Shown here piece by piece: positions 4,723 to 63,553 of a stretch of DNA of 64,000 nucleotides; within the stretch, counting starts at the first letter, position 1; each line of letters opens with the position of its first letter. Both the position numbers and the translations under genes were made by a program. Origin of the DNA: Minisyncoccota bacterium (GTDB lineage: Bacteria; Patescibacteriota; Minisyncoccia; UBA6257; JAGOQP01); assembly GCA_041661795.1 (NCBI GenBank), contig JBAZTS010000003.1, forward strand, positions 3,939-67,938, read 5' to 3'. Below the pieces are notes generated by a model. It had not been told where the DNA came from. It worked only from the letters and a program-made list of their open reading frames with translations, and did no database searches.

Positions 4723-5561
4723 TATTTATTTAGAGTATAAAAATTTTTAAACAGACAAGCCACTAAAATTGGCCCCGTTCCTCCCGGAGTGGGAGTAAAA
4801 AAAGAAAGAAAATCATCGCCATTTTCATTTAAAGATTCAATATCAAAATCTCCTCCCATTTTACCCGTTTTTTCATTTATTCCGTATCCAAAGTCAATAA
4901 CCGCTGATCCTTTTTTGAGCATACTAGTTTTAACCAATCCTGCTTTTCCTGTTCCCAGGACAACTAGATCGGCGTTTTTTAAAGAATCTAAATTACATCC
5001 TTCTGACATGGAGCAAACTTCAGGAACTTCTTCTAAAAACCAATTAGTGACCGGGCGACCAACTAAAAACCCCTGCCCTAAAACCGCTACCTCTCTAAAA
5101 GAATTTCTTTTTAAGTTTAAACTTTTTAACACCTCATCTATAACCGCAACCGTAGGAGGTAAAACAATAGATCTGTTGTGATAAAAAGCCCCAACAGCTC
5201 TTTCTGACATCGCCTCTATGTCTTTTTGAGAAGGAATAACATTGATCGCATAGAAGGGGTTTAGAGTATTAGGAAGAGGAAGTTGTAAAATAGCTCCCCC
5301 GCATTGGCTGGACAAAACCACCTGTCTTATTTTTTCCCTTAAATCATCGTTGGAAATATTTTCATCGTATTGATACAAACGAAAATCCACCCCAAGCTCT
5401 TTGGCTATTTTTTCTTTTTGAGCGATAAAACTGACGGAAGCCGGATCTTTTCCAACCAAAAACACCGCCAAAAATTTTTTGGGTACTGTTTTTGTTTTAA
5501 GCTCGTCTAAAATATTTTTAGCTATTTGTTTTCCATCTATTTTAATCATATTTTTTGACAA
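4722..5561 (-). CDS. folD: Bifunctional methylene-THF dehydrogenase/cyclohydrolase FolD
   Basis: LVGKDPAS, ILQLPLP, DLVVLGTGKAGLV and TPTPGGTGPI motifs. Confidence 0.85.
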   Translation of the reverse strand: MSKNMIKIDGKQIAKNILDELKTKTVPKKFLAVFLVGKDPASVSFIAQKEKIAKELGVDFRLYQYDENISNDDLREKIRQVVLSSQCGGAILQLPLPNTLNPFYAINVIPSQKDIEAMSERAVGAFYHNRSIVLPPTVAVIDEVLKSLNLKRNSFREVAVLGQGFLVGRPVTNWFLEEVPEVCSMSEGCNLDSLKNADLVVLGTGKAGLVKTSMLKKGSAVIDFGYGINEKTGKMGGDFDIESLNENGDDFLSFFTPTPGGTGPILVACLFKNFYTLNK

Positions 5562-6792
5562 CCAAAATATTGTGTAATTCTTTAGCTAATTTCTTCATAT
5601 CTTTTTCTTTCATTCCTCTTGAGGTAACTGCATAAGTTCCGATTCGTATGGCTGATGGCTTAAAGGGAGAGGTGTCTCCAAAAATTGTGTTGCGGTTGGC
5701 TAAAATTCCATTTTTTTCCAGCATTTTTTCCGCCTCAAACCCGTTTATACCTAAACCAGATACATCTATCAGGAACATGTGACAATCAGTTCCTCCACCA
5801 ACTATATCCCAGCCCAAGGCTGGTCCGCCTCGGGCGGAAAACCCTAATTTTTTCATTTCATCACAAAGAGTTTTAGCGTTTTTTACAACTTGCTTATAGT
5901 AATTTTTGTTTTTCGTCGTAAGCAAAAGTCCATGGGCAATGGCGGCAATTGTGTTGTTATGAGGTCCGCCTTGGAGACCGGGGAATATCGCTTTATCAAC
6001 TAATATTGGTAAATCAATATTTTCTTTTTTTATATAAATTAAAGCTGCTCTCGGACCAAAAAGTGATTTATGAGTTGTAGTCATAACAAAATCAGAATAT
6101 TTAAAAGGAGACGGGTAAAATCCGGCTGAAATTAATCCGGCATAGTGAGAAATATCAGCCAGATGATAAGCCCCTACTTTTTTGGCAATTTCTCCTATCT
6201 TTTTGAAGTTTATTTTTTTAGGATAGGCCGAGGCCCCAGAGACAATAATTTTGGGCTTATGTTTTTTTGCTAATTTTTCTAATTCTTTATAATCAATGTC
6301 ATAATTTTTATCAACGCCGTAATGAACAACGTTAAAAAGTTTTCCAGTAAAACTAACTTTGGAACCATGAGAAAGGTGTCCTCCGGCGGTCAAATCCATA
6401 GAAAGGATTGTTTCGCCTGGTTTTAGAACAGAAAGATAAATAGCCAAGTTAGCAATAGCTCCCGAATAGGCCTGGACATTCACATGCCATTTGTTTTTAT
6501 CTAATTTAAATACCTTTAAGGCCCTATCTTTAGCCAACTCTTCTATTTTGTCATAGTAAACATTCCCAGGATAATATCTTTTTCCGGAATATCCTTCCGA
6601 GTATTTATTGGTCAATTCCGACCCAAGCAACTCCAAAACACCTTGGGGAGCCAAATTTTCTGAAGCAATTAAATCAATGTCTTCTTTTTGTCTTTTTACT
6701 TCCTTGTCAGCTAGGTCAAAAAGAGTTTTGTCTGTCTTTTTTAACTTTTTAAGCATTAAACAATAATAATCCAAAAAGACCGCTTTGAGCAA
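5542..6792 (-). CDS. glyA: Serine hydroxymethyltransferase
   Basis: PLP-lysine region TTTHKSLFGPRAAL, conserved N-terminal SENLAP. Adjacent to folD (one-carbon unit pair). Confidence 0.9.
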   Translation of the reverse strand: MLKAVFLDYYCLMLKKLKKTDKTLFDLADKEVKRQKEDIDLIASENLAPQGVLELLGSELTNKYSEGYSGKRYYPGNVYYDKIEELAKDRALKVFKLDKNKWHVNVQAYSGAIANLAIYLSVLKPGETILSMDLTAGGHLSHGSKVSFTGKLFNVVHYGVDKNYDIDYKELEKLAKKHKPKIIVSGASAYPKKINFKKIGEIAKKVGAYHLADISHYAGLISAGFYPSPFKYSDFVMTTTHKSLFGPRAALIYIKKENIDLPILVDKAIFPGLQGGPHNNTIAAIAHGLLLTTKNKNYYKQVVKNAKTLCDEMKKLGFSARGGPALGWDIVGGGTDCHMFLIDVSGLGINGFEAEKMLEKNGILANRNTIFGDTSPFKPSAIRIGTYAVTSRGMKEKDMKKLAKELHNILVVKKYD

Positions 6793-11307: not shown

Positions 11308-11349
11308 TAAGCTAAATATACTACAAAAAGATCAAAATTTAAAAGGGAA

Positions 11350-12621
11350 TCAAATCCTAAGAAGCTTTTTAAAGTCGGATTCTTTTTTGTATGGTCCGAT
11401 AACAGCCAAGTTTAATCCCTTGTTTTGAAACACCTGTTTGGCAACCTCCATAACGTCCTTTTTGGAAACTAATTGAAGTTTTTTTATTATTTCTTGAGAT
11501 GAATTAATTTTTCCCAAAATTGTTTCTTGTTCCCCGTAGAAAAAAGCCAAATCGCTTGACGTCTCCAAAGAAAGCATTAAATTTCCAATATAATGGTCTT
11601 TGGCTCTTATTAATTCTTTATCGTTAATTCCATTTTTTAATATTTCTCTTAGTTCATCCAATATCGCCTTTATCGCAATAAATGTTTTTTGGTGATTGAC
11701 GCCGGCAAATATTTCCAAATAGCCATGTGTTTTAAAAAGAGATGGCGATGAGCCCACATAATAAGCCGCCCCCAATTCCTCTCTTACTTTTTGAAACAAA
11801 CGAGAACTCATTCCGCCCCCTAAAATTTCAGAGAGTAGAGCAAGCGGATACTTTTTTGGAGAATTAAGGGCAAACGACTTTAGCCCAAAAATAAAATGGG
11901 TTTGGTCTAAATCTTTTTTAACTATGCTTAATAAGGGACTATTTTGTTTTTCTAAAACATTTTTTGAAATAATTCTTTTGCCCTTGTCTAAATTAGAAAA
12001 ATATTTATCCACCATCTGTCTGGCCTTTTTAGTGTCAATTCTTCCGGCAATAACAACAATCGTCTTTGAACCGTGATAGTGAGAGGAACGATATTTTATA
12101 AAATCGTTTTGAGATATTATTCTTATGTTTTCTTTGGGTCCCGCGATACTCCATCCGGCCGGTTGATTGCCATACATTAATTTATCTAATTCTTCAGAGA
12201 CCTTGGCGCGAGGCTGGTCCTCATACATATTTATCTCTTCTATAATCACCCCCTTCTCTTTTTCTATTTCTTTCTTATTAAAAACGGGGTTTAGGTACAT
12301 ATCAGCCAAAATATCAAAAACTTTGTCCATTTTATTATAAGCCACCTTGGCCCAGTAACCAGTTAAATCTCTGGATGTAAAAGCGTTACTTAGCGCTCCA
12401 AGACCAGCCAATTCACTGGCGATATCCATTGGAGTTGGTCTTTTTTTGGTTCCCTTAAAACACATATGTTCTAAAAAATGCGAGATGCCGTTGTTTTTTT
12501 GGTTTTCATAAGCAGCTCCGGCTTCAACAAAAATCCCCACAGTAACCGAGGGACTTTCTTTTTGTGGTATAACCAACAACCTCAACCCGTTTTTAAAGGT
12601 ATGTTTTATAAAATTAGCCAT
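11350..12621 (-). CDS. M16 family zinc peptidase (insulinase-like)
   Basis: Inverted zinc motif HFLEHMCF(KGT) near the N-terminus. Size is typical. Confidence 0.75.
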   Translation of the reverse strand: MANFIKHTFKNGLRLLVIPQKESPSVTVGIFVEAGAAYENQKNNGISHFLEHMCFKGTKKRPTPMDIASELAGLGALSNAFTSRDLTGYWAKVAYNKMDKVFDILADMYLNPVFNKKEIEKEKGVIIEEINMYEDQPRAKVSEELDKLMYGNQPAGWSIAGPKENIRIISQNDFIKYRSSHYHGSKTIVVIAGRIDTKKARQMVDKYFSNLDKGKRIISKNVLEKQNSPLLSIVKKDLDQTHFIFGLKSFALNSPKKYPLALLSEILGGGMSSRLFQKVREELGAAYYVGSSPSLFKTHGYLEIFAGVNHQKTFIAIKAILDELREILKNGINDKELIRAKDHYIGNLMLSLETSSDLAFFYGEQETILGKINSSQEIIKKLQLVSKKDVMEVAKQVFQNKGLNLAVIGPYKKESDFKKLLRI

Positions 12622-19250: not shown

Positions 19251-19356
19251 TTTTTTTAAATCTCAAACCCCAAGCACCAAATTCTAAATAAATTTAAAAT
19301 CTTAAATTTCAAACTTGTTTAGATTTTAGTATTCGGAATCTGAAAACTTTATTTAA

Positions 19357-21350: not shown

Positions 21351-21388
21351 CCTCTCTTATCGGCCGATCGTTCAATAAGAGAGATTAA
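21351..21388. repeat. 38-bp GC-cored hairpin repeat, copy 1
   Basis: CCTCTCTTATCGGCCGATCGTTCAATAAGAGAGATTAA: 9-bp stem CTCTCTTAT/ATAAGAGAG around the CGGCCGATCG loop. Repeated at 22053-22090. Confidence 0.75.
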
Positions 21389-22052: not shown

Positions 22053-22090
22053 ACTCTTTTATCGGCCGATCGTCCAATAAGAGAGATTAA
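22053..22090. repeat. 38-bp GC-cored hairpin repeat, copy 2
   Basis: ACTCTTTTATCGGCCGATCGTCCAATAAGAGAGATTAA. Three mismatches to copy 1, same orientation. Confidence 0.75.
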
Positions 22091-22145
22091 GTTATAAGCA
22101 ATGGAATTGAAATTAAAGTCGGGTATTTTCCAAACAAAAATTTAG

Positions 22146-22226
22146 TGGGCAGGGAGGGACTTGAACCCTCAAACCTTGCGGCACTAGCTCCTAAAGCTAG
22201 CGTGTTTACCATTTCACCACCTGCCC
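22146..22226 (-). tRNA. tRNA-Leu (anticodon UAG)
   Basis: Cloverleaf folds on the minus strand: acceptor GGGCAGG/CCTGCCC, anticodon stem CTAGC/GCTAG with loop TTTAGGA, long variable arm, T-arm GAGGG-TTCAAGT-CCCTC. CCA is not encoded. Confidence 0.85.
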
Positions 22227-31194: not shown

Positions 31195-32328
31195 ATGAAG
31201 ATAAAACCATCAGAAGATTCAAAAAAGAGTAATCCTCTTTTTTATTTATTAAAAAATAACCCAAACTTATTAACGCCGCCAAAGGAAGGAGACACCTTTG
31301 ATGCTGAGCTACTATATAAGGACGAACGCAGAGCCTATTTTGATTTAGAAGGAAAAAGCACTGGAATCGTCTTTGGATTAGAGTTTATTAATGCAAAAGA
31401 CATAATAAAAGGATTGGAAATCGGTCAAAAAACGACTATTACGATTACCAATCCGGAAAATAATGACGGAGAAACAGAAATTTCTTTAGTTAAAGCCCTT
31501 TGGCAACAGAACTGGCAGGAAATAAAGAGGTCTAAAGACGCGTCAGAACCAGTGGTGGTTAAAATATTAGGAGCTAATAGTGGTGGACTGATGGCCGAGC
31601 TTTATGGAATTAAGGCGTTCGTCCCAGTTTCTCAGCTTTCGGCCCAAAATTATCCTCACGTTGAAGATGGTGATAAAAATAAAATCTTAGACGAACTAAA
31701 AAAATTCATAGGAAAAGATATGGAAGTAAAGGTATTGGATTTTAACCCTAAGGCCGATAAATTAATACTTTCAGAAAAAGAACTAACTGGAGAAGGAGTT
31801 AAAAAATCGCTGGAAAATTATAAAATTGGAGATACTGTTGATATTATAGTTTCTGGGGTGGCTGATTTTGGAGTTTTTGTTAAATTTGCCGACGATCTAA
31901 ATATTGAGGGTCTAGTTCACATATCCGAGATAGACCATAAACTCATAGATTCACCAAAGGAAATTGTTAAGGTTAACGATCTACTTAAAGCTAAAATAAT
32001 AGAAATTAAAGACGGCAAGGTCTCTTTGTCCTTCAAGGCCTTAAAACCAAATCCTTGGGATAAGGCGTTGGAATTTTTCAAAGAAGAACAAGAAGTCAAA
32101 GGAACCGTAACAAAGTTTAATCCTTTTGGAGCTTTAATTTTTTTGGGAAACGACTTACAAGGATTAATTCACATCTCCGAATTTTCCGCCCAAGGCGGAT
32201 CCGCCTCTGGCGGAGAAAGTAATATGGAAAAAATGAAAGAGACGATTGAGGTTGGAAAAGAGTACACATTTGTTGTCTCACAATTAAAACCTGACGAGAA
32301 AAGAATTATTCTAAAACTCAAAAAATAA
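31195..32328 (+). CDS. rpsA: S1-domain RNA-binding protein, short ribosomal protein S1 homologue
   Basis: At least three S1 repeats, for example GLVHISEIDHKLIDSPKEIVKVNDLLKAKIIEI and GLIHISEFSA...VGKEYTFVVSQL. Contains an in-frame GGSASGG insertion that matches a palindromic element. Confidence 0.6.
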   Translation: MKIKPSEDSKKSNPLFYLLKNNPNLLTPPKEGDTFDAELLYKDERRAYFDLEGKSTGIVFGLEFINAKDIIKGLEIGQKTTITITNPENNDGETEISLVKALWQQNWQEIKRSKDASEPVVVKILGANSGGLMAELYGIKAFVPVSQLSAQNYPHVEDGDKNKILDELKKFIGKDMEVKVLDFNPKADKLILSEKELTGEGVKKSLENYKIGDTVDIIVSGVADFGVFVKFADDLNIEGLVHISEIDHKLIDSPKEIVKVNDLLKAKIIEIKDGKVSLSFKALKPNPWDKALEFFKEEQEVKGTVTKFNPFGALIFLGNDLQGLIHISEFSAQGGSASGGESNMEKMKETIEVGKEYTFVVSQLKPDEKRIILKLKK

Positions 32329-32353: not shown

Positions 32354-32380
32354 AAAACCCGCTTCTGGCGGGTTTTGTTT
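32354..32380 (+). terminator. Rho-independent terminator
   Basis: AAAACCCGCTTCTGGCGGGTTTTGTTT. Confidence 0.75.
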
Positions 32381-35122: not shown

Positions 35123-35200
35123 GCACTCTTAGCTCAGTTGGCCCTAAAAATTTTATTGTAGTAAAATTTAACGGGTAAATTAGAGCGCTAGTTTATTCCC
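35123..35200 (+). pseudogene. tRNA-like fragment(s): copy of the tRNA-Val 5' end (GCACTCTTAGCTCAGTTGG) with insertion and a degenerate D/anticodon region, bracketed by a 10-bp inverted repeat
   Basis: CTGATTATAT (35113-35122) pairs with ATATAATCAG (35203-35212). Internal sequence matches the tRNA D-arm consensus but cannot form a cloverleaf. Confidence 0.4.
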
Positions 35201-35247
35201 GATTTGTTTCTGATATAATCAGAATTACAAATCGCAATCCTGCTTAT

Positions 35248-35301
35248 GGTGGGCGCATAGCTCAGTTGATTAGAGCGTCCGCCTCATTCACCCCGTTAGA
35301 T
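35248..35301 (+). pseudogene. Truncated tRNA 5' half (Met/Ile-CAU-like, ends at anticodon CAT), forming the left arm of an inverted repeat around tRNA-Val
   Basis: GGGCGCATAGCTCAGTTGATTAGAGCGTCCGCCTCAT has no 3' half. The outer 10-mer GGTGGGCGCA and inner CCCCGTTAGAT are mirrored at 35429-35438 and 35387-35397. Confidence 0.5.
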
Positions 35302-35307
35302 TTATGA

Positions 35308-35379
35308 GGGCACTTAGCTCAGTGGTAGAGCGACTCGTTTACACCGAGTAGGTCGGGGGTTCAATCCCTCCAGTGCCCA
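35308..35379 (+). tRNA. tRNA-Val (anticodon UAC)
   Basis: 72-nt cloverleaf: acceptor GGGCACT/AGTGCCC, anticodon stem ACTCG/CGAGT with loop TTTACAC, T-arm GGGGG-TTCAATC-CCTCC. Confidence 0.85.
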
Positions 35380-35453
35380 CAAAAAAATCTAACGGGGCAA
35401 GCGCAAAAACCCCATGTTTGAGCCCTGGTGCGCCCACCATGCGCGGGACATCG

Positions 35454-35508
35454 AGGAGGTCATAGGTTTCCGCCAGAGGCGGATCCGCCTCTGGCGGACA
35501 ATCCTCCA
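35454..35508. repeat. Long hairpin with a perfect 28-bp GC-rich palindrome centred on GGATCC
   Basis: CCGCCAGAGGCGGATCCGCCTCTGGCGG (35470-35497), flanked by GAGGAGG...CCTCC. The 20-mer GGCGGATCCGCCTCTGGCGG is identical to 32194-32213 inside rpsA. Confidence 0.8.
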
Positions 35509-35556
35509 GCACCCACTAAATAACAACTTTTTAGTGATATTAAAAAAAGCCAGTAT

Positions 35557-35582
35557 TTAAGCCGAAAGTGAGTTTCGGCTTA
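35557..35582. repeat. Perfect 11-bp-stem hairpin TTAAGCCGAAA-GTGAG-TTTCGGCTTAA
   Basis: Seen directly. Nearby T-runs on both strands. Possible terminator or structured element. Confidence 0.4.
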
Positions 35583-35636
35583 AAACCTAGCTTTTTTGAA
35601 AATTACCCATTTTCACCCCCAAAATATGGTTTAAAA

Positions 35637-35776
35637 TGTTTCACGTGAAACAATTTTTTTATTTTAAAGTGGCAAAGATGTGGCAATTCCATTTCCACTT
35701 GGTTTCCACTTTACCACCACACTAATAGTATTAGTGTGGTGGTTTATTTCCACTTTACAATGTTTCACGTGAAACA
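35637..35776. promoter_or_regulatory. Two copies of the perfect 16-bp palindrome TGTTTCACGTGAAACA flanking a TTTCCACTT repeat cluster and a 29-bp hairpin
   Basis: Palindromes at 35637-35652 and 35761-35776. TTTCCACTT at 35693-35701, 35703-35711 and 35747-35755. Hairpin CCACCACACTAATAGTATTAGTGTGGTGG at 35714-35742. TATAAT at 35794-35799 precedes the yraN ATG. Confidence 0.6.
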
Positions 35777-35805
35777 ATTTGTATCATTTTTGGTATAATA
35801 AAGGC

Positions 35806-36246
35806 ATGAATTACAATAAATTAGTTGGATCCACAGGTGAAGGCGTCGCCTGTGGATATCTTATGGAAAAGGGGTATAAAATATTATTTAGGAATTACGC
35901 TACTAAGTTTGGGGAGCTTGATATAATAACTAAATCACCAGATAAAACCTTAGTATTTTGCGAAGTAAAGTCGTTACTTTTAAAGCGGAAAGGAAGTGGC
36001 AATAAAGTGGAAAGTTATCCACAACAAAGTGGCAATAAAGTGGAAAACCTGTGGCAAACCAATTATACACCGGAGGACAATATGTCTGCGTCTAAGATAA
36101 AGAAGTTTAAAAAGATCGCCCAGTGGTACGCAAATCAGAATAATAACCTTATAGACGAATCAGTGGGTTACAGGTTGGACTTAATAGCTGTGGAATTATC
36201 AGATGTAGATGCTCCCATTATAAGACATTATGAGAATATAAGTTAG
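35806..36246 (+). CDS. yraN: YraN/UPF0102 family putative endonuclease with an internal repeat-encoded insertion
   Basis: GEGVACGYLMEKGYKILFRNYATKFGELDIIT...LVFCEVKS matches the YraN core. The insertion GSGNKVESYPQQSGNKVENL is encoded by two copies of AGTGGCAATAAAGTGGAAA around a consensus TTATCCACA. Confidence 0.6.
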   Translation: MNYNKLVGSTGEGVACGYLMEKGYKILFRNYATKFGELDIITKSPDKTLVFCEVKSLLLKRKGSGNKVESYPQQSGNKVENLWQTNYTPEDNMSASKIKKFKKIAQWYANQNNNLIDESVGYRLDLIAVELSDVDAPIIRHYENIS

Positions 36247-37489: not shown

Positions 37490-37699
37490 ATGTTTTTTCA
37501 AGAAACTTTAAATCTAAAAGATTTTCTTCTTTTCAGCGACGACGACATGAGTGATGTAACGGACGACGAAGAAGAGCTTATTGAAGCAGGAGACGAAGAA
37601 GAGGATGAGGAAGAGGACGACGAAGAGGGCGGGGACAAGGACGACAAAGATAAAAAACCAAAAAAACCCGACGTCGTAGATGAATTAGATGAAAATTAA
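37490..37699 (+). CDS. Small highly acidic low-complexity protein (Asp/Glu-rich with Lys-rich tail)
   Basis: 69 aa, DDEEELIEAGDEEEDEEEDDEEGGDKDDKDKKPKK. Coding status uncertain. Confidence 0.25.
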   Translation: MFFQETLNLKDFLLFSDDDMSDVTDDEEELIEAGDEEEDEEEDDEEGGDKDDKDKKPKKPDVVDELDEN

Positions 37700-37755: not shown

Positions 37756-39897
37756 ATGGCTAAAACTAAATCTAAAAAGATCTTTTTATTTTCATTGGTT
37801 GTTGTCTTGGTTGTGGGAATCTTTTTTGTTTATCAATTTATAGACATTATTAGAGGCCTTCCCCACCCGGAAAAAATAACCAATTTTCAACCGACTCAGT
37901 CAACTAAAATTTATGACAGAACCGGAGAGGTTTTGCTTTATGAAATACACGGAGAAGAAAATCGTACGCTAATAAGAGGAGAGGATATGCCTGATTACGC
38001 TAAAAAGGCCACCATAGCCATAGAAGACCAAAACTTTTACAATCACTCGGCTGTTGATATAAAAGCCGTAATAAGGGCTGTTTTTGTGAATATTATAAAG
38101 GCTGATTTAGCCCAAGGAGGATCCACTATAACCCAACAATTAGCTAGAAACGTTTTTTTAACATTGGACAAAAATTTCAAGAGAAAAATAAGAGAGACAA
38201 TATTGGCTTATTGGATTGAAAAAAACTACAACAAGGAAGAAATACTAAACCAATATTTAAACCAGATAAGTTACGGGTCTAATGCTTATGGAATAGAATC
38301 AGCGGCTCAAACTTTTTTAGGGAAAAAAGCCAAGGATTTAACTTTGGCCGAGTCGGCTCTTTTGGCTGGACTGATTCAATCTCCTTCTTATTATTCTCCT
38401 TGGGGCAGTCATTTAGATGAATTATTATCCAGAAAGAATTATGTTCTTGAACAGATGAAAAAATTATCTTTTATAGATGAACAACAATTGGAATCCGCCA
38501 AAAAAGAAGATATAAAGTTTATGCCCCAAAGTATTGGTTCTATAAAAGCCCCTCACTTTGTGATGATGATAAAAGAATATATATCTAATAAATACGGAGA
38601 TGACTTGGTTGAAAACGGAGGATTAAAAGTTGTAACCACCCTTGATTGGAAACAACAAGAGATAGCCCAAAGAGTCGTAAAAGAAGGAGCTCAAAGAAAT
38701 AAAGAACTTTACAAAGGAGAAAATTCTTCTTTGGTTTCACAAGACCCAAAAACAGGACAAATTTTAGCGATGGTTGGCTCGGCTGATTATTTCAATAAAG
38801 AAATTGAGGGAAATTTTAATGTCGCCACCCAAGGGAAAAGACAGCCGGGATCAACGTTTAAACCTTTTGCTTATTTAGCGGCTCTTTATAAAGGATATAC
38901 CCCTGATACAATATTATTTGATGTTCCAACAGAATTTTCTACCAACAAAAATCTTTGTCCGGTAATTGTTGATTTTTCCAATAAAAACACCGCTTGTTTT
39001 CATCCTCAAAATTTTGACGGTCTCTTTAGGGGACCGATTACTTTTAAACAGGGGCTAGCTCAATCCATTAACGTCGCCTCGGTAAAAACGCTCTATCTGG
39101 CGGGCATAGATAACACCTTAGACATAGCTCAAAAAATGGGAATAACCACATTAAGTGATAGATCTAGATATGGATTGTCTTTAGTTTTGGGCGGAGGAGA
39201 GGTAAAACTTATTGATTTAGTTAACGCCTACTCCGTTTTTTCACAAGAGGGGATAAAACACAAACAATCTTTTATTTTAAAAATAGAAAACAACAAAGGG
39301 GAAACTTTGGAAGAATATAAAGATGAACCCGTTCAGGTCATAGAAAATAATTATGCCAGAATAATAAATAATATTTTATCGGATATTAATTTAAGGTCCG
39401 GGCTCTTTCACTCCAGCTTATCTCTAACTGTTTTTGAGGGTTATGACGTAGCTCTAAAAACGGGGACCACAAATGATTATAAAGACGCTTGGGTAATGGG
39501 ATATTCTCCGTTTATAACGGTGGGAGTTTGGGCTGGAAACAATAATAATAAACAAATGCAAGAACAAGGGGGAAGTATTTTAGCCGCCGTCCCTATATGG
39601 AGTAATTTTTTAAAAGAGATTATAAATCAATATCCATCGGAAATATTTAACAGCCCCGAAAGCATAACAAGTAATAAACCAATTTTAAACGGGCAATACA
39701 CTTCGGTCCTGGAGAACAACGGATTTAGCTCACAGCACATTCATGATATTCTCTATTATTTAGATAAAAATAACCCCAACGAAGATTACAATCAACCAAA
39801 TCCCGGGAATGATTCTCAATTTGAAAATTGGGAGGTTCCGGTGCTGGAATGGGCTAAAAATAACGTCCCAAACTTTCTTACTGAATACAATAAATAG
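37756..39897 (+). CDS. Class A penicillin-binding protein (transglycosylase + transpeptidase), PBP1A type
   Basis: Start moved to the MAKTKSKK Met. GT51 motifs (IAIEDQNFYNHSAVD, GGSTITQQLARN). Transpeptidase STFKP, SxN and KTG(T). Confidence 0.85.
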   Translation: MAKTKSKKIFLFSLVVVLVVGIFFVYQFIDIIRGLPHPEKITNFQPTQSTKIYDRTGEVLLYEIHGEENRTLIRGEDMPDYAKKATIAIEDQNFYNHSAVDIKAVIRAVFVNIIKADLAQGGSTITQQLARNVFLTLDKNFKRKIRETILAYWIEKNYNKEEILNQYLNQISYGSNAYGIESAAQTFLGKKAKDLTLAESALLAGLIQSPSYYSPWGSHLDELLSRKNYVLEQMKKLSFIDEQQLESAKKEDIKFMPQSIGSIKAPHFVMMIKEYISNKYGDDLVENGGLKVVTTLDWKQQEIAQRVVKEGAQRNKELYKGENSSLVSQDPKTGQILAMVGSADYFNKEIEGNFNVATQGKRQPGSTFKPFAYLAALYKGYTPDTILFDVPTEFSTNKNLCPVIVDFSNKNTACFHPQNFDGLFRGPITFKQGLAQSINVASVKTLYLAGIDNTLDIAQKMGITTLSDRSRYGLSLVLGGGEVKLIDLVNAYSVFSQEGIKHKQSFILKIENNKGETLEEYKDEPVQVIENNYARIINNILSDINLRSGLFHSSLSLTVFEGYDVALKTGTTNDYKDAWVMGYSPFITVGVWAGNNNNKQMQEQGGSILAAVPIWSNFLKEIINQYPSEIFNSPESITSNKPILNGQYTSVLENNGFSSQHIHDILYYLDKNNPNEDYNQPNPGNDSQFENWEVPVLEWAKNNVPNFLTEYNK

Positions 39898-55661: not shown

Positions 55662-56495
55662 ATGAGACAAAAATTAGGACAGCATTTTTTAAAGAATAAA
55701 GAAGTTTTGGAAAACATTGCCGACTCTCTTGAATTAAAAAAAGGCGACGTTGTTATAGAAATAGGTCCGGGGCACGGGGAATTAACGCAATATTTGCTTA
55801 ATGCTGGCGTTACTATTATTGCCATAGAGAAAGATGAGAGTATGGTGGAATATTTATGTAATAAATTCGAAGCACGAAGCACAAAACTCGAAACAAGCAC
55901 AAAATCCAAAATTCAAAACAATGAGTTAAATTTAATTAATGGGGACGCCCTCAAAATACTCCCTGTTTTGAATACGGTATACGACATACGGCATACGAAA
56001 TACAAAATTGTTGGCAATATTCCCTACTACATAACTGGGCATCTGTTAAGAATTATTAGCGAGTTAAAAAACAAACCCAAATTAACTGTTTTACTTATAC
56101 AAAAAGAAGTGGCGCAAAGAATTTGCGCAAAATCTCCACAAATGAATTTATTATCTGCTAGTGTGCAATTTTGGGCGGAACCCAAAATAATACAAAATGT
56201 GACTAGGGGAAATTTTAATCCTCCTCCAGACGTTGATTCGGCTATTGTTTTGTTAAAAACAAAATCACTGATTAACACGGATAAAAATAACACACGGATT
56301 GATACAGATATATACTATGGTTTTATAAGAAAAATTTTTAAGCAACCCAGAAAAACGGTTTTGAATAATTTAATTAGTGGTGGATATAAGAAAGATGAGG
56401 TTTTGGGGTGGTTTAAAAATAACAAAATAAAGGAGAATTGCCGACCGCAGGATTTTGATGTGAATATGCTGATAAAAATGGCTTTAGAGCTTTAA
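55662..56495 (+). CDS. ksgA: 16S rRNA (adenine1518/1519-N6)-dimethyltransferase KsgA/RsmA with a repeat-derived in-frame insertion
   Basis: GQHFL, SAM site EIGPGHGELT, NGDAL and VGNIPY motifs. Insertion KFEARSTKLETSTKSKIQNNE is encoded by the AAATTCGAAGCACGAAGCAC repeat at 55863-55882. Confidence 0.8.
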   Translation: MRQKLGQHFLKNKEVLENIADSLELKKGDVVIEIGPGHGELTQYLLNAGVTIIAIEKDESMVEYLCNKFEARSTKLETSTKSKIQNNELNLINGDALKILPVLNTVYDIRHTKYKIVGNIPYYITGHLLRIISELKNKPKLTVLLIQKEVAQRICAKSPQMNLLSASVQFWAEPKIIQNVTRGNFNPPPDVDSAIVLLKTKSLINTDKNNTRIDTDIYYGFIRKIFKQPRKTVLNNLISGGYKKDEVLGWFKNNKIKENCRPQDFDVNMLIKMALEL

Positions 56496-62379: not shown

Positions 62380-62389
62380 CTATTTATTT

Positions 62390-62497
62390 AAGCACGAAGC
62401 ACTAAATCCGAAATTCGAAACAATATTTAAATTCTAATGTTAAAAATTTTTAAACTCAAACACCGTTTCGGATTTTGATATTAGAATTTCGAATTTT
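62390..62497. repeat. Intergenic repeat block: AAGCACGAAGCAC + AAATCCGAAATTCGAAA, then inverted TTTCGGATTTTGATATTAGAATTTCGAATTT
   Basis: Member of a family also found at 55863-55882, 63068-63106 and (inverted) 63501-63532. Confidence 0.7.
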
Positions 62498-63056: not shown

Positions 63057-63067
63057 TCTATTCGTTT

Positions 63068-63106
63068 AAATTCGAAGCACGAAGCACGAAATCTGAAACA
63101 AATCAC
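63068..63106. repeat. Repeat AAATTCGAAGCACGAAGCACGAAATCTGAAACAAATCAC
   Basis: Shares a 20-mer with the ksgA copy at 55863-55882. Confidence 0.7.
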
Positions 63107-63107
63107 A

Positions 63108-63473
63108 ATGACAAAAATCCAAAATAATAAGCAATATGATTTAGAAGAGAGAACCTATGAGTTTGCCAAGAACGTTAGGGTATTTATTAAGAAAATCAGA
63201 AGAACAATATCAAACATTGAAGATGGAAAACAAGTCATAAGATCGTCAGGTTCTATGGGAGCTAATTATATAGAAGCCAACGAAGCATTAAGTAAGAAAG
63301 ATTTTATTATGAGAATTAAAATTTCCAGGAAAGAATCTAAAGAAAGTGTTTATTGGCTGACCTTGATAGATGTTGAGGGTGATAAAGATTTAGAAAAAGA
63401 AAGAGAAATTTTAGTAAATGAGGCACAAGAATTGATGTTAATTTTTAGTTCTATTATGAGGAAATCAGTTTAG
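63108..63473 (+). CDS. Four-helix-bundle protein (family often encoded in rRNA intervening sequences / accessory loci)
   Basis: YDLEERTYEFAKNVRVFIKK...GANYIEANEALSKKDFIMRIKISRKESKESVYWLTLI pattern. Confidence 0.55.
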   Translation: MTKIQNNKQYDLEERTYEFAKNVRVFIKKIRRTISNIEDGKQVIRSSGSMGANYIEANEALSKKDFIMRIKISRKESKESVYWLTLIDVEGDKDLEKEREILVNEAQELMLIFSSIMRKSV

Positions 63474-63500
63474 TTATTTTTTATTTATAATTTAGATATT

Positions 63501-63532
63501 ATTTCGAATTTCGATATTCGAATTTCGTGCTT
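63501..63532. repeat. Inverted copy of the TTCGAAA / AAGCACGAA repeat family (ATTTCGAATTTCGATATTCGAATTTCGTGCTT)
   Basis: Immediately upstream of a TATAAT (63542-63547) and the VirB4 start. Confidence 0.65.
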
Positions 63533-63553
63533 AGATTATGGTATAATCTATTT

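Follow-up and report, generated by a model that had tools for sequence, protein, structure and literature searches.

A 30-nucleotide twin-hairpin sequence in protein genes and tRNA remnants of a Paceibacterota bacterium: a probable miniature insertion element

Several families of short palindromic repeats bear comparison with the element described here: a sequence of 30 nucleotides (nt), made of two abutting hairpins and termed the twin-hairpin (TH) element, three copies of which lie in a 64,000-nt stretch of DNA (the window) from a Minisyncoccota bacterium (contig JBAZTS010000003.1, positions 3,939 to 67,938). Rickettsia palindromic elements (RPEs; Ogata et al. 2000, 2002, summarized in PMC10969869) sit in frame in protein genes and leave the host protein intact, with an added surface peptide; they are also found in non-coding DNA, encode no transposase, measure about 100-150 bp and are confined to Rickettsia, with no spread across phyla reported. 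TH elements resemble RPEs in that they lie in frame in genes, are missing from orthologues, occur also in non-coding DNA and encode no transposase; they differ in length (30 bp), in consisting of two minimal hairpins, and in being distributed over about a dozen phyla, the host of the window belonging to Paceibacterota. TH is not known to have any sequence kinship with RPE-1 to RPE-10.

Mitochondrial genomes harbor a comparable class of repeats, which includes the double-hairpin elements of Allomyces and the PstI palindromes that flank tRNA genes in Neurospora. The repetitive hairpin elements (RHEs) of sponge mitochondria also belong here (PMC2800124), as does yeast mitochondrial GC42, with conserved stems, variable loops, putative target duplications of 2-3 bp and a proposed mobilization by intron endonucleases (PMC4478555). 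The points of likeness are several: mitochondrial GC clusters are short GC-rich palindromes, some of them with two hairpins, in a compact AT-rich genome; their stems are conserved while their loops vary; they neighbor tRNA genes or occupy spacers, and a few lie in coding or rRNA sequence; and for them, as for TH, mobilization by an endonuclease encoded elsewhere has been proposed, with none proven. Mitochondrial GC clusters are organellar and lineage-specific, whereas TH is found on bacterial chromosomes as one sequence family over about a dozen phyla; and where GC42 is concerned, TH differs by the absence of a target duplication, by its fixed length and by its residence in free-living or episymbiotic bacteria. 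By analogy, TH appears to resemble mitochondrial GC clusters and double-hairpin elements in behavior even more than it resembles RPEs.

Among bacterial repeats, repetitive extragenic palindromes (REPs) and bacterial interspersed mosaic elements (BIMEs) are GC-rich imperfect palindromes of 20-40 bp, often paired, multicopy and non-autonomous; as described by Di Nocera et al. (2013, PMC3733652), REPs are extragenic, species-specific, linked to REP-associated tyrosine transposases (RAYTs) and tagged with GTAG or CGTC at one end. In contrast, two of the three TH copies in the window, and about 40% of copies elsewhere, lie inside open reading frames (ORFs); the flanks read T-T-Y^R-A-A (the caret marks the element) with neither GTAG nor CGTC (126 copies); and one sequence is shared across phyla. 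No RAYT-like or other transposase-like family recurs beside TH copies (134 loci).

The element and its three copies in the window

The initial annotation of the window described a perfect 28-bp palindrome within a longer hairpin, and a 20-mer of this palindrome that recurs in frame in an S1-domain gene and is unlikely to be shared by chance. Each of these claims stands. On direct reading the palindrome CCGCCAGAGGCGGATCCGCCTCTGGCGG occupies 35470-35497, and its hairpin is lengthened by the flanks GAGGAGG (35453-35459) and CCTCC (35503-35507; z = -6.9 for 35381-35600). The 20-mer GGCGGATCCGCCTCTGGCGG is found identically at 32194-32213, inside the S1-domain ORF, as part of the reading SAQGGSASGG, and none of 100 dinucleotide-preserving shuffles of the window gives a match within 3 mismatches. 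As a motif, the palindrome is real at its locus, but the conserved structure is a twin hairpin, of which the perfect palindrome is a special case: a repeat search revealed a third copy, in a serine hydroxymethyltransferase (SHMT) gene (match 5807-5841, family D3), and the element common to all three is two abutting 15-nt hairpins, each with a 6-bp stem and a 3-nt loop, with the dyad-symmetric consensus TCCGCC-NNA-GGCGGA / TCCGCC-TNN-GGCGGA (Table 1).

All three copies have perfect stems, including that in SHMT, where hairpin 2 departs from the consensus at two base pairs, both compensatory. A profile made from 136 copies (nhmmer) finds exactly three copies in the window (E 7e-13 to 2e-10), with no other match below E 0.01, and the same three are returned by a structural scan that allows two stem mismatches; they are spaced 26 kb and 3 kb apart. 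A weak fourth "copy" (38105-38139, 60% identical) is a chance match, and encodes the conserved GGSTITQQ transglycosylase motif of a PBP1A-like gene. The perfect 28-bp palindrome of the non-coding copy is due only to its complementary loops (AGA/TCT). Owing to these loops the predicted fold of this copy, as DNA or RNA, is one 13-bp hairpin, whereas the two coding copies are predicted to fold, as DNA, into twin hairpins: the single long stem belongs to the non-coding copy only. The 100-nt block that carries the latter (35400-35499) has a GC content of 0.64 against about 0.2-0.45 in most adjacent blocks. The SHMT copy was recovered, with 0 mismatches over 1215 nt, in the independent Logan assembly of run SRR18595301 and is therefore not an artefact of one assembler. 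The terminator of the S1 gene, which the initial annotation took for a relative of the palindrome, proves to lie outside the family: the two share one 13-mer with 1 mismatch, in another stem register, and the profile does not report it (cut-off E 50).

The S1 protein is 100% identical to a public protein from a metagenome-assembled genome named "Candidatus Paceibacterota bacterium"; for SHMT the public gene call (404 aa) starts 36 nt inside the ORF. The S1 copy is read in frame as SAQGGSASGG (residues 331-340, in the context F-S-A-Q-G-G-S-A-S-G-G-E) and the SHMT copy as SARGGPALGW, between a conserved G-F and D-I-V-G-G. Alignment of the S1 protein with 119 orthologues (52-75% identity) shows exactly ten extra residues, missing from all 119, at a point where in the orthologues a conserved HISEF runs straight into E/G-S/N; GGSASGG is found in none of them, so that no case of the same linker encoded by unrelated DNA came to light. 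SHMT likewise carries an exact 10-aa insertion relative to 119 of 119 orthologues (closest 79% identity) and to all solved SHMT structures. The insertion points, GAATTT^GAAAGT in S1 and GGGTTT^GATATA in SHMT, both contain TTT^GA. As judged from these alignments, TH entered the two genes after their divergence from every sampled relative. Its codons (TCC/GCC/GGC/GGA) are foreign to a window whose non-RNA 100-nt blocks have about 19-55% GC. In an AlphaFold2 model of S1 (60-sequence alignment; mean pLDDT, the model's confidence score, 87.9), residues 331-340 have a pLDDT of 57, compared to 86-95 in neighboring blocks, and are modelled as coil between a short helix (327-330) and a second helix (340-350) in the fourth S1 domain: the ten residues encoded by TH are thus predicted to form a disordered loop.

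Distribution, structure and target sites of the family

A degenerate pattern that admits the SHMT variant was scanned over species-representative genomes and matched at least 120 loci. With these and the second in-frame copy in SHMT, the earlier proposal, a small palindromic element able to insert into genes without shifting the frame, is borne out. Among the matches listed, record titles assign 51 to Patescibacteria (many classes), 17 to the Planctomycetes-Verrucomicrobia-Chlamydiae (PVC) group, 13 to Gamma/Pseudomonadota, 11 to Omnitrophota and 9 to Ignavibacteria/Bacteroidota, with 11 unclassified and 8 from other phyla: a spread of about a dozen phyla. All come from metagenome-assembled or single-cell genomes (none is titled as a cultured isolate), the Gammaproteobacteria that bear TH are low-GC, and locus GC ranges from 0.31 to 0.67. 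Several matches lie on contigs of 120 kb to 1.6 Mb; mis-binning is therefore no explanation for the spread across phyla. Fourteen viral contigs match the TH pattern, and BLAST of the TH consensus against GenBank phages and PLSDB plasmids, with which the low-complexity filter may interfere, gave no match. No description of the element was found in the searchable literature, whose coverage is incomplete, so that an earlier description is possible; a search with the exact core string returned cloning primers only.

The stems covary. Pair 3:13 of hairpin 1 is C:G in 69 and A:T in 57 of 126 copies and mismatched in none, although mismatches were permitted by the pattern, and pair 1:15 is complementary in 118. 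Stem variants (TCAGCC/GGCTGA, CCAGCC/GGCTGG, CCCGCC/GGCGGG) are always altered on both sides. Loop 1 ends in A in 119 copies and loop 2 begins with T in 120; the middle loop positions are complementary in 33 copies only, and the center is not always GGATCC. The covarying stems, together with the unpaired middle loops, show that the conserved structure is two dyad-symmetric hairpins and not one long hairpin; the latter is also at odds with the 57 copies in which the A:T pair of hairpin 1 would be mismatched across the two halves.

The flanks of the 126 copies yield the logo T(-3) T(-2) Y(-1) ^ R(+1) A(+2) A(+3). Where the uninterrupted sequence is known – the D-, anticodon and T-loops of tRNAs – these bases belong to the target, and removal of 30 nt gives back canonical tRNA sequence in five loci (L116, L087, L061, L109 and L140), with no duplicated bases. 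TH is an insertion, made without evident target duplication at T-rich^A-rich junctions with the consensus TTY^RAA. In-silico excision of 130 copies, at many offsets and lengths, produced a tRNA that ARAGORN can call in only two, L087 and L116; the remaining tRNA contexts are fragmentary or contain additional insertions. Where TH copies are clustered in other genomes they abut or stand 7-9 nt apart.

Some copies form part of something longer. In Kiritimatiellae/Verrucomicrobia (L012, 4587-4616 and 6408-6437; L003; L065) TH lies inside a larger repeat of at least 150 nt, with flanks cataggaattt[TH]caatccgt followed by a hairpin repeat of the type gtcattccgagcg...cgctcggaatgac. The non-coding copy of the window has similar short flanks, cataggtt[TH]caatcc, which merely lengthen its outer stem.

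The position of TH within genes is not random with respect to frame. Among 130 copies there are 51 that sit 20 or more codons inside an ORF of at least 150 aa; 38 of them read S-A-x-G-G-(S/P)-A-x-G-(G/W), usually after Phe, which is about six standard deviations from the one third expected; copies outside long ORFs show no preference (frames 27/23/29). The bias is most simply put down to selection for the small, flexible S-A-x-G-G reading. The length of TH is a multiple of three, none of its six frames contains a fixed stop codon, and the T-run before and A-run after it are the reverse of a terminator: a translated gene can therefore harbor TH and still yield a full-length product. Among genic copies, those in the CCA-adding-enzyme genes of L011 and L060 allow stems to be compared with their surroundings. 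The two genes are 59.5% identical, with a third-position identity of 0.39 at conserved fourfold-type codons, and carry TH at the same site: here 24 of 24 stem bases are identical and the loops are different. Either the sequence is maintained at the nucleotide level, or insertion at this site has been repeated, or other copies have converted it; the case is the chief argument for a functional constraint, and it parallels what has been reported for yeast mitochondrial GC42 (PMC4478555).

tRNA genes and a family of small GIY-YIG nucleases

The third copy of the window is non-coding, as the initial annotation had it, yet the site is not plain spacer: it is the T-loop of a tRNA-derived fragment. 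Comparison with the neighboring tRNA-Val (AGGTC-GGGGG-TTCAATC-CCTCC-AGTGCCC-A-C) identifies remnants of the variable loop, T-arm and acceptor, with TH between T55 and C56. ARAGORN does not call this decayed fragment, even with intron mode and lowered thresholds, and an Rfam search over 35381-35600 gave no credible match at E up to 10. A relative (L121; S1 75% identical by full alignment) has a homologous block with a degenerate TH, CCACCAGAGGCAGATCCGCCTCCAGCGGG, and a more distant one (L122) a plain tRNA-Val followed by a terminator. As L121 shares the block, the non-coding insertion is older than both coding ones, and TH can decay.

Proximity to tRNA genes extends to the family: of 130 copies, 20 have a tRNA gene no more than 300 nt away, compared to 3.9% of random positions in the same loci, and tRNA-Ser is over-represented among the tRNAs near TH copies. 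When ORFs within 1.5 kb of copies in the listed loci were compared all against all, the sole family present in more than four loci was a ~85-aa GIY-YIG protein (PF01541, E 6e-15), which occurs in 10 listed loci, in 9 of them within 200 nt of TH. The reverse test was based on 80 metagenome loci picked solely for encoding this family. Each of the 11 closest relatives (at least 54% identity) is next to a tRNA gene, usually directly upstream of the tRNA, and in 8 of these 11 a TH is found 14-34 nt upstream of the start codon, within a duplicated 5' fragment of the tRNA.

These cassettes have two layouts: [tRNA positions 1-12]-TH-[positions 13 to about 24]-spacer-GIY-YIG-[intact tRNA], and [intact tRNA]-GIY-YIG-[full duplicate tRNA with TH in the D-loop]. 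One cassette that lacks TH (L141) has only 8 nt of tRNA kept upstream, and viral contigs contain a single distant relative of the cassettes. The tRNA duplicates on either side suggest homing, with the tRNA itself as both homology arms. TH is integral to one lineage of these tRNA-targeting GIY-YIG cassettes. Phage T4 SegB, a free-standing GIY-YIG homing endonuclease at tRNA genes (PMC2330249), offers a parallel: a small GIY-YIG gene among tRNA genes with tRNA sequence as target and homology, which is also the setting of some TH copies. SegB itself, a phage protein, is larger and has no associated hairpin element, whereas the nuclease linked to TH has about 85 aa and is chromosomal, with tRNA duplicates on its flanks, one of them split by TH.

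In three loci (L116 225-700, L087 6115-6620, L088 6452-6956) the GIY-YIG gene is found between direct tRNA duplicates, of which one is intact while TH splits the other; spacer, GIY-YIG and tRNA-Val together seem, in L116, to have been added as a unit in tandem after an intact tRNA-Val. A different palindromic insert, ccgggtcatccgacccggcgtccagtcggatgactgggc, occurs in the T-loop (GGTTCG^AATCC) of a tRNA-Ser duplicate in L145 (about 1855-1893; contig Ga0208373_1000072), and the same duplicate carries TH in its D-arm: other families of hairpin elements therefore use the same tRNA-loop niches.

Table 1. Features of the window that contain, border or were compared with TH elements
Feature	Position	Strand	Description
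TH in SHMT gene	5809..5838	-	tttt TCCGCC CGA GGCGGA CCAGCC TTG GGCTGG gat
SHMT host gene: serine hydroxymethyltransferase	5542..6792	-	Pfam PF00464, E 5e-139; PDB matches, E 2e-105
S1 host gene: four-domain S1 RNA-binding protein (rpsA-like), 377 aa	31195..32328	+	Pfam PF00575, E 2e-31
TH in S1 gene	32185..32214	+	tttt TCCGCC CAA GGCGGA TCCGCC TCT GGCGGA gaa
Intrinsic terminator of S1 gene, outside TH family	32354..32376	+	hairpin AAAACCCGC-TTCTG-GCGGGTTTT then TTTTGTTT
Interrupted tRNA-like gene with nested tRNA-Val	35251..35439	+	direct reading
tRNA-Val(TAC)	35308..35380	+	Rfam tRNA match; 88 nt upstream of non-coding TH
Decayed tRNA 3' fragment hosting TH	35457..35516	+	AGGTC-ATAGG-TT[TH]CAATC-CTCC-AGCACCC-A-C, direct reading
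TH, non-coding copy	35469..35498	.	gttt TCCGCC AGA GGCGGA TCCGCC TCT GGCGGA caa; profile E about 2e-12
Bidirectional terminator-like hairpin closing tRNA/TH block	35543..35597	.	core AAGCCGAAA-GTGAG-TTTCGGCTT at 35559-35581 (repeat search, I7)

The DNA upstream of the non-coding copy (35123-35439) is a patchwork of tRNA-like pieces broken up by other hairpin inserts. The interrupted tRNA-like gene of Table 1 has a 5' half (35251-35289) with acceptor GGGCGCA, a D-arm and an anticodon loop CTCATTC with CAT, and a 3' end, TGCGCCC-ACCA, at 35429-35439; within it the nested tRNA-Val is enclosed by a 13-bp helix (CCCCGTTAGATTT at 35291-35303 and AAATCTAACGGGG at 35385-35397). ARAGORN, intron mode included, does not call the gene. 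Its architecture is kept in L121 (about 11337-11527), where the T-arm is better preserved. One possibility is that a unit bounded by hairpins has entered an anticodon loop; another is a tRNA that is split or contains an intron. Another 5' piece resembling a tRNA (35123-35243; GCACTCT-TA-GCTC-AGTTGG ... TTAGAGC) has a 37-nt AT-rich hairpin insert in its D-loop (35142-35178). After it come TTTATTC, a stem-loop and TTACAAATCGCAATCCTGCTTA, a motif shared identically with L121. Downstream, a perfect 16-bp palindrome, TGTTTCACGTGAAACA, occurs twice, 124 nt apart (35630-35665 and 35754-35789), upstream of a UPF0102 (YraN-like) gene (35779..36246); both copies are conserved in L121 (about 12228-12250 and 12416-12440) and look like putative operator sites for a dimeric regulator.

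The window holds other repeats. A 37-nt repeat, CTCT(C/T)TTATCGGCCGATCGT(T/C)CAATAAGAGAGATTAA, is present at 21352-21388 and 22054-22090 (95% identical, 702 nt apart); it adjoins tRNA-Leu (22145-22226) and is internally palindromic around CGGCCGATCG. An AT-rich dispersed repeat of about 57 nt, TAAATTCGAAGCACGAAGCAC...AAATTCGAAAC..., is found at 55862-55918, 62389-62445 and 63067-63123, and also at 19257-19313; its family includes a 52-nt inverted pair (62386-62437 / 63485-63536) whose two arms enclose about 1 kb close to the window's end. Between ruvC and the PBP1A-like gene, a 69-aa ORF (37490-37699) is almost wholly Asp/Glu-rich and of low complexity (DDDMSDVTDDEEELIEAGDEEEDEEEDDEE...).

Nature of the element, competing explanations and significance

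TH falls outside the RPE, GC-cluster, REP/BIME, MITE (miniature inverted-repeat transposable element), terminator, CRISPR and Rfam families. Classical MITEs are typically 50-500 bp long, have terminal inverted repeats and a target-site duplication, and derive from a parent insertion sequence (IS); TH has only 30 bp, leaves no target-site duplication when 30 nt are removed, and no parent IS was found near its copies (134 loci). An intrinsic terminator does not fit either: on both strands a T-run precedes and an A-run follows, a terminator scan raised no flag, and intact ORFs hold the element. The spacing of the copies, kilobases apart in the window and abutting or a few nucleotides apart in clusters elsewhere, is not that of CRISPR repeats, which form regularly spaced arrays with unique spacers. 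Curated Rfam 15 families account only for three tRNAs in the window at or above the gathering threshold, and the Rfam scans gave no Intron_gpI match, which sets aside a group I intron. Bulge-helix-bulge tRNA introns have 3-nt bulges staggered across a 4-bp helix; the two 3-nt loops of TH, when it takes the form of one long hairpin, lie opposite one another without stagger. Integron attC core sites (GTTRRRY) and dif/Xer sites (11-6-11) are unsuited in geometry or flanks. Translational bypassing (as in T4 gene 60 or mitochondrial "byp") is unnecessary: the insert is in frame and stop-free, with no take-off/landing codon pair. Minimal elements of the IS200/IS605 type have two subterminal hairpins, insert without duplication on the 3' side of a fixed tetra- or pentanucleotide and depend on TnpA supplied in trans; TH would share the two hairpins, the absence of a duplication and the T-rich 5' flank; the TH hairpins, however, abut without guide or cleavage spacers and are dyad-symmetric, and no TnpA was found near copies (134 loci).

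TH is probably a family of miniature, non-autonomous insertion elements, of which the palindrome first noticed in the window is one copy. Copies that land in genes would survive mainly if read as Ser-Ala-x-Gly-Gly twice, a flexible loop, and so be filtered by selection; the non-coding copy would have come to rest in the T-loop of a dead tRNA fragment beside tRNA-Val, in a region rich in hairpin insertions in tRNA-like sequence. Mobilization would depend on a nuclease that acts in trans and is specific for structure or sequence, the foremost candidate being the subfamily of ~85-aa free-standing GIY-YIG endonucleases, the sole recurrent neighbor among the listed loci. Their cassettes, flanked by tRNA duplicates of which one has TH in the D-arm, may use universally conserved tRNA sequence as homology, and this would explain the presence of one 30-bp sequence in about a dozen phyla. 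Stem conservation would be the work of the mobilizing machinery (re-insertion or intrastrand hairpin correction) and not of host function. The nuclease may move solo THs, or the cassette may do no more than carry a TH between genomes.

Several points weigh against this account. There is no demonstrated transposition event, within-species polymorphism of empty and filled sites, or mobilizing enzyme. Proximity to tRNAs confounds the link between TH and GIY-YIG. The more distant relatives within the nuclease family lack TH, only about 7% of the listed TH loci have a GIY-YIG gene nearby, none (nor a remnant) is found in the 64-kb window, and TH may be a passenger in a single ancestral cassette. 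The frame bias could stem in part from the codon phase of TTT^RA targets. Stem conservation between L011 and L060 is no less compatible with functional constraint than with an element that is purely selfish, and the decayed orthologous copy in L121 shows that maintenance is not universal. The scan pattern fixes most stem bases, so that family diversity and copy numbers are under-sampled; and the taxon labels of metagenome-assembled genomes can be wrong, although several matches are on the long contigs noted above.

A bolder version of the same proposal makes TH the bacterial counterpart of mitochondrial GC clusters: spread horizontally over about a dozen phyla, carried and mobilized in trans by ~85-aa GIY-YIG homing endonucleases that land on tRNA sequence, its stems actively maintained and its ten-residue loops seeded in essential proteins. 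We hold this full combination to be possible, though doubtful. A more radical variant supposes that RNA processing, by a bacterial pathway as yet undescribed, may remove hairpins inserted in tRNA loops such as those of the nested tRNA region.

An improbable alternative is that TH is a cis-element under host selection, whose structure, as RNA or DNA, a conserved protein binds or cleaves, with genic copies kept for their action on transcripts. Near tRNAs it might serve as a signal for processing by an RNase or for stability, or else it might be where a dimeric protein binds DNA. The perfect stems of all three window copies, their perfect covariation across the family, the identity of stems in orthologous genes with near-saturated synonymous sites and a dyad symmetry typical of sites for dimeric proteins are all as expected of such an element, and the position of TH 14-34 nt upstream of the GIY-YIG start in many cassettes makes a role in the 5' untranslated region possible. 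Yet the positions are unrelated to gene ends, being mid-protein loops of unrelated enzymes, the D-, anticodon and T-loops of tRNA remnants, and spacers; TH is absent from 119 of 119 orthologues of each host protein, matches no Rfam family, and has decayed in the orthologous non-coding copy of L121. A distribution over about a dozen phyla with no conserved partner gene nearby (listed loci) is, moreover, hard to square with vertical functional conservation.

Slightly less probable again is that solo THs are footprints: a larger element, for example a GIY-YIG cassette between two THs, inserted and was then lost through recombination of its two ends or through break repair, leaving a 30-bp scar. 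TH-ORF-TH arrangements do exist (L088 and L145/L146), TH stands at the junction with the tRNA duplicate in every cassette, and no target duplication is seen; but the model needs a cassette of at least 300 bp to have entered essential single-copy genes (S1, SHMT) and to have been precisely removed, whereas all observed cassettes are at tRNA genes, none is inside a protein gene, and most TH copies are far from any tRNA.

Very little speaks for selection on a Gly/Ser/Ala-rich linker peptide with incidental DNA identity. The S-A-x-G-G reading is strongly preferred in coding copies and forms a flexible loop in the S1 model, but codons are identical in every copy, atypical for an AT-rich genome and without synonymous variation; the same DNA occurs in non-coding sequence and tRNA genes; and changes compensatory at the nucleotide level alter the peptide (S-A-S-G-G vs P-A-L-G-W). 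The non-coding copies and codon identity effectively refute this explanation. Finally, an assembly artefact, chimeric read or synthetic contamination, as might be suspected from a BamHI site coding Gly-Ser (the GGATCC center with a GGS-type peptide resembles an engineered linker, and cloning primers were all that the core string returned), is scarcely credible for a sequence with covarying stems, a center that varies, an identical SHMT copy in an independent assembly, a degenerate orthologous copy in another genome and at least 120 loci from unrelated projects and assemblers.

What is unusual in TH is the combination of its 30-bp size, its twin-hairpin dyad architecture, its distribution across phyla, its insertion into tRNA loops and its link to a small GIY-YIG nuclease. 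If confirmed, it would be a very small invasive DNA element and set a lower size limit. Its 3n length, stop-free frames and anti-terminator flanks would account for the persistence of selfish DNA in genomes as small and as densely packed with genes as those of the candidate phyla radiation (CPR; Patescibacteria), and its one conserved sequence would make it possible to trace gene flow between uncultivated lineages of groundwater and sediment. TH would also be a source of new surface loops in core proteins (ribosomal protein S1, SHMT, the CCA-adding enzyme); annotators and structure predictors should expect ten-residue S-A-x-G-G-S-A-x-G-G inserts, and tRNA pseudogenes split by TH, in metagenome-assembled genomes. 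The link to GIY-YIG nucleases at tRNA genes would, in turn, offer a bacterial handle on an old mitochondrial question: how GC-rich hairpin clusters move.

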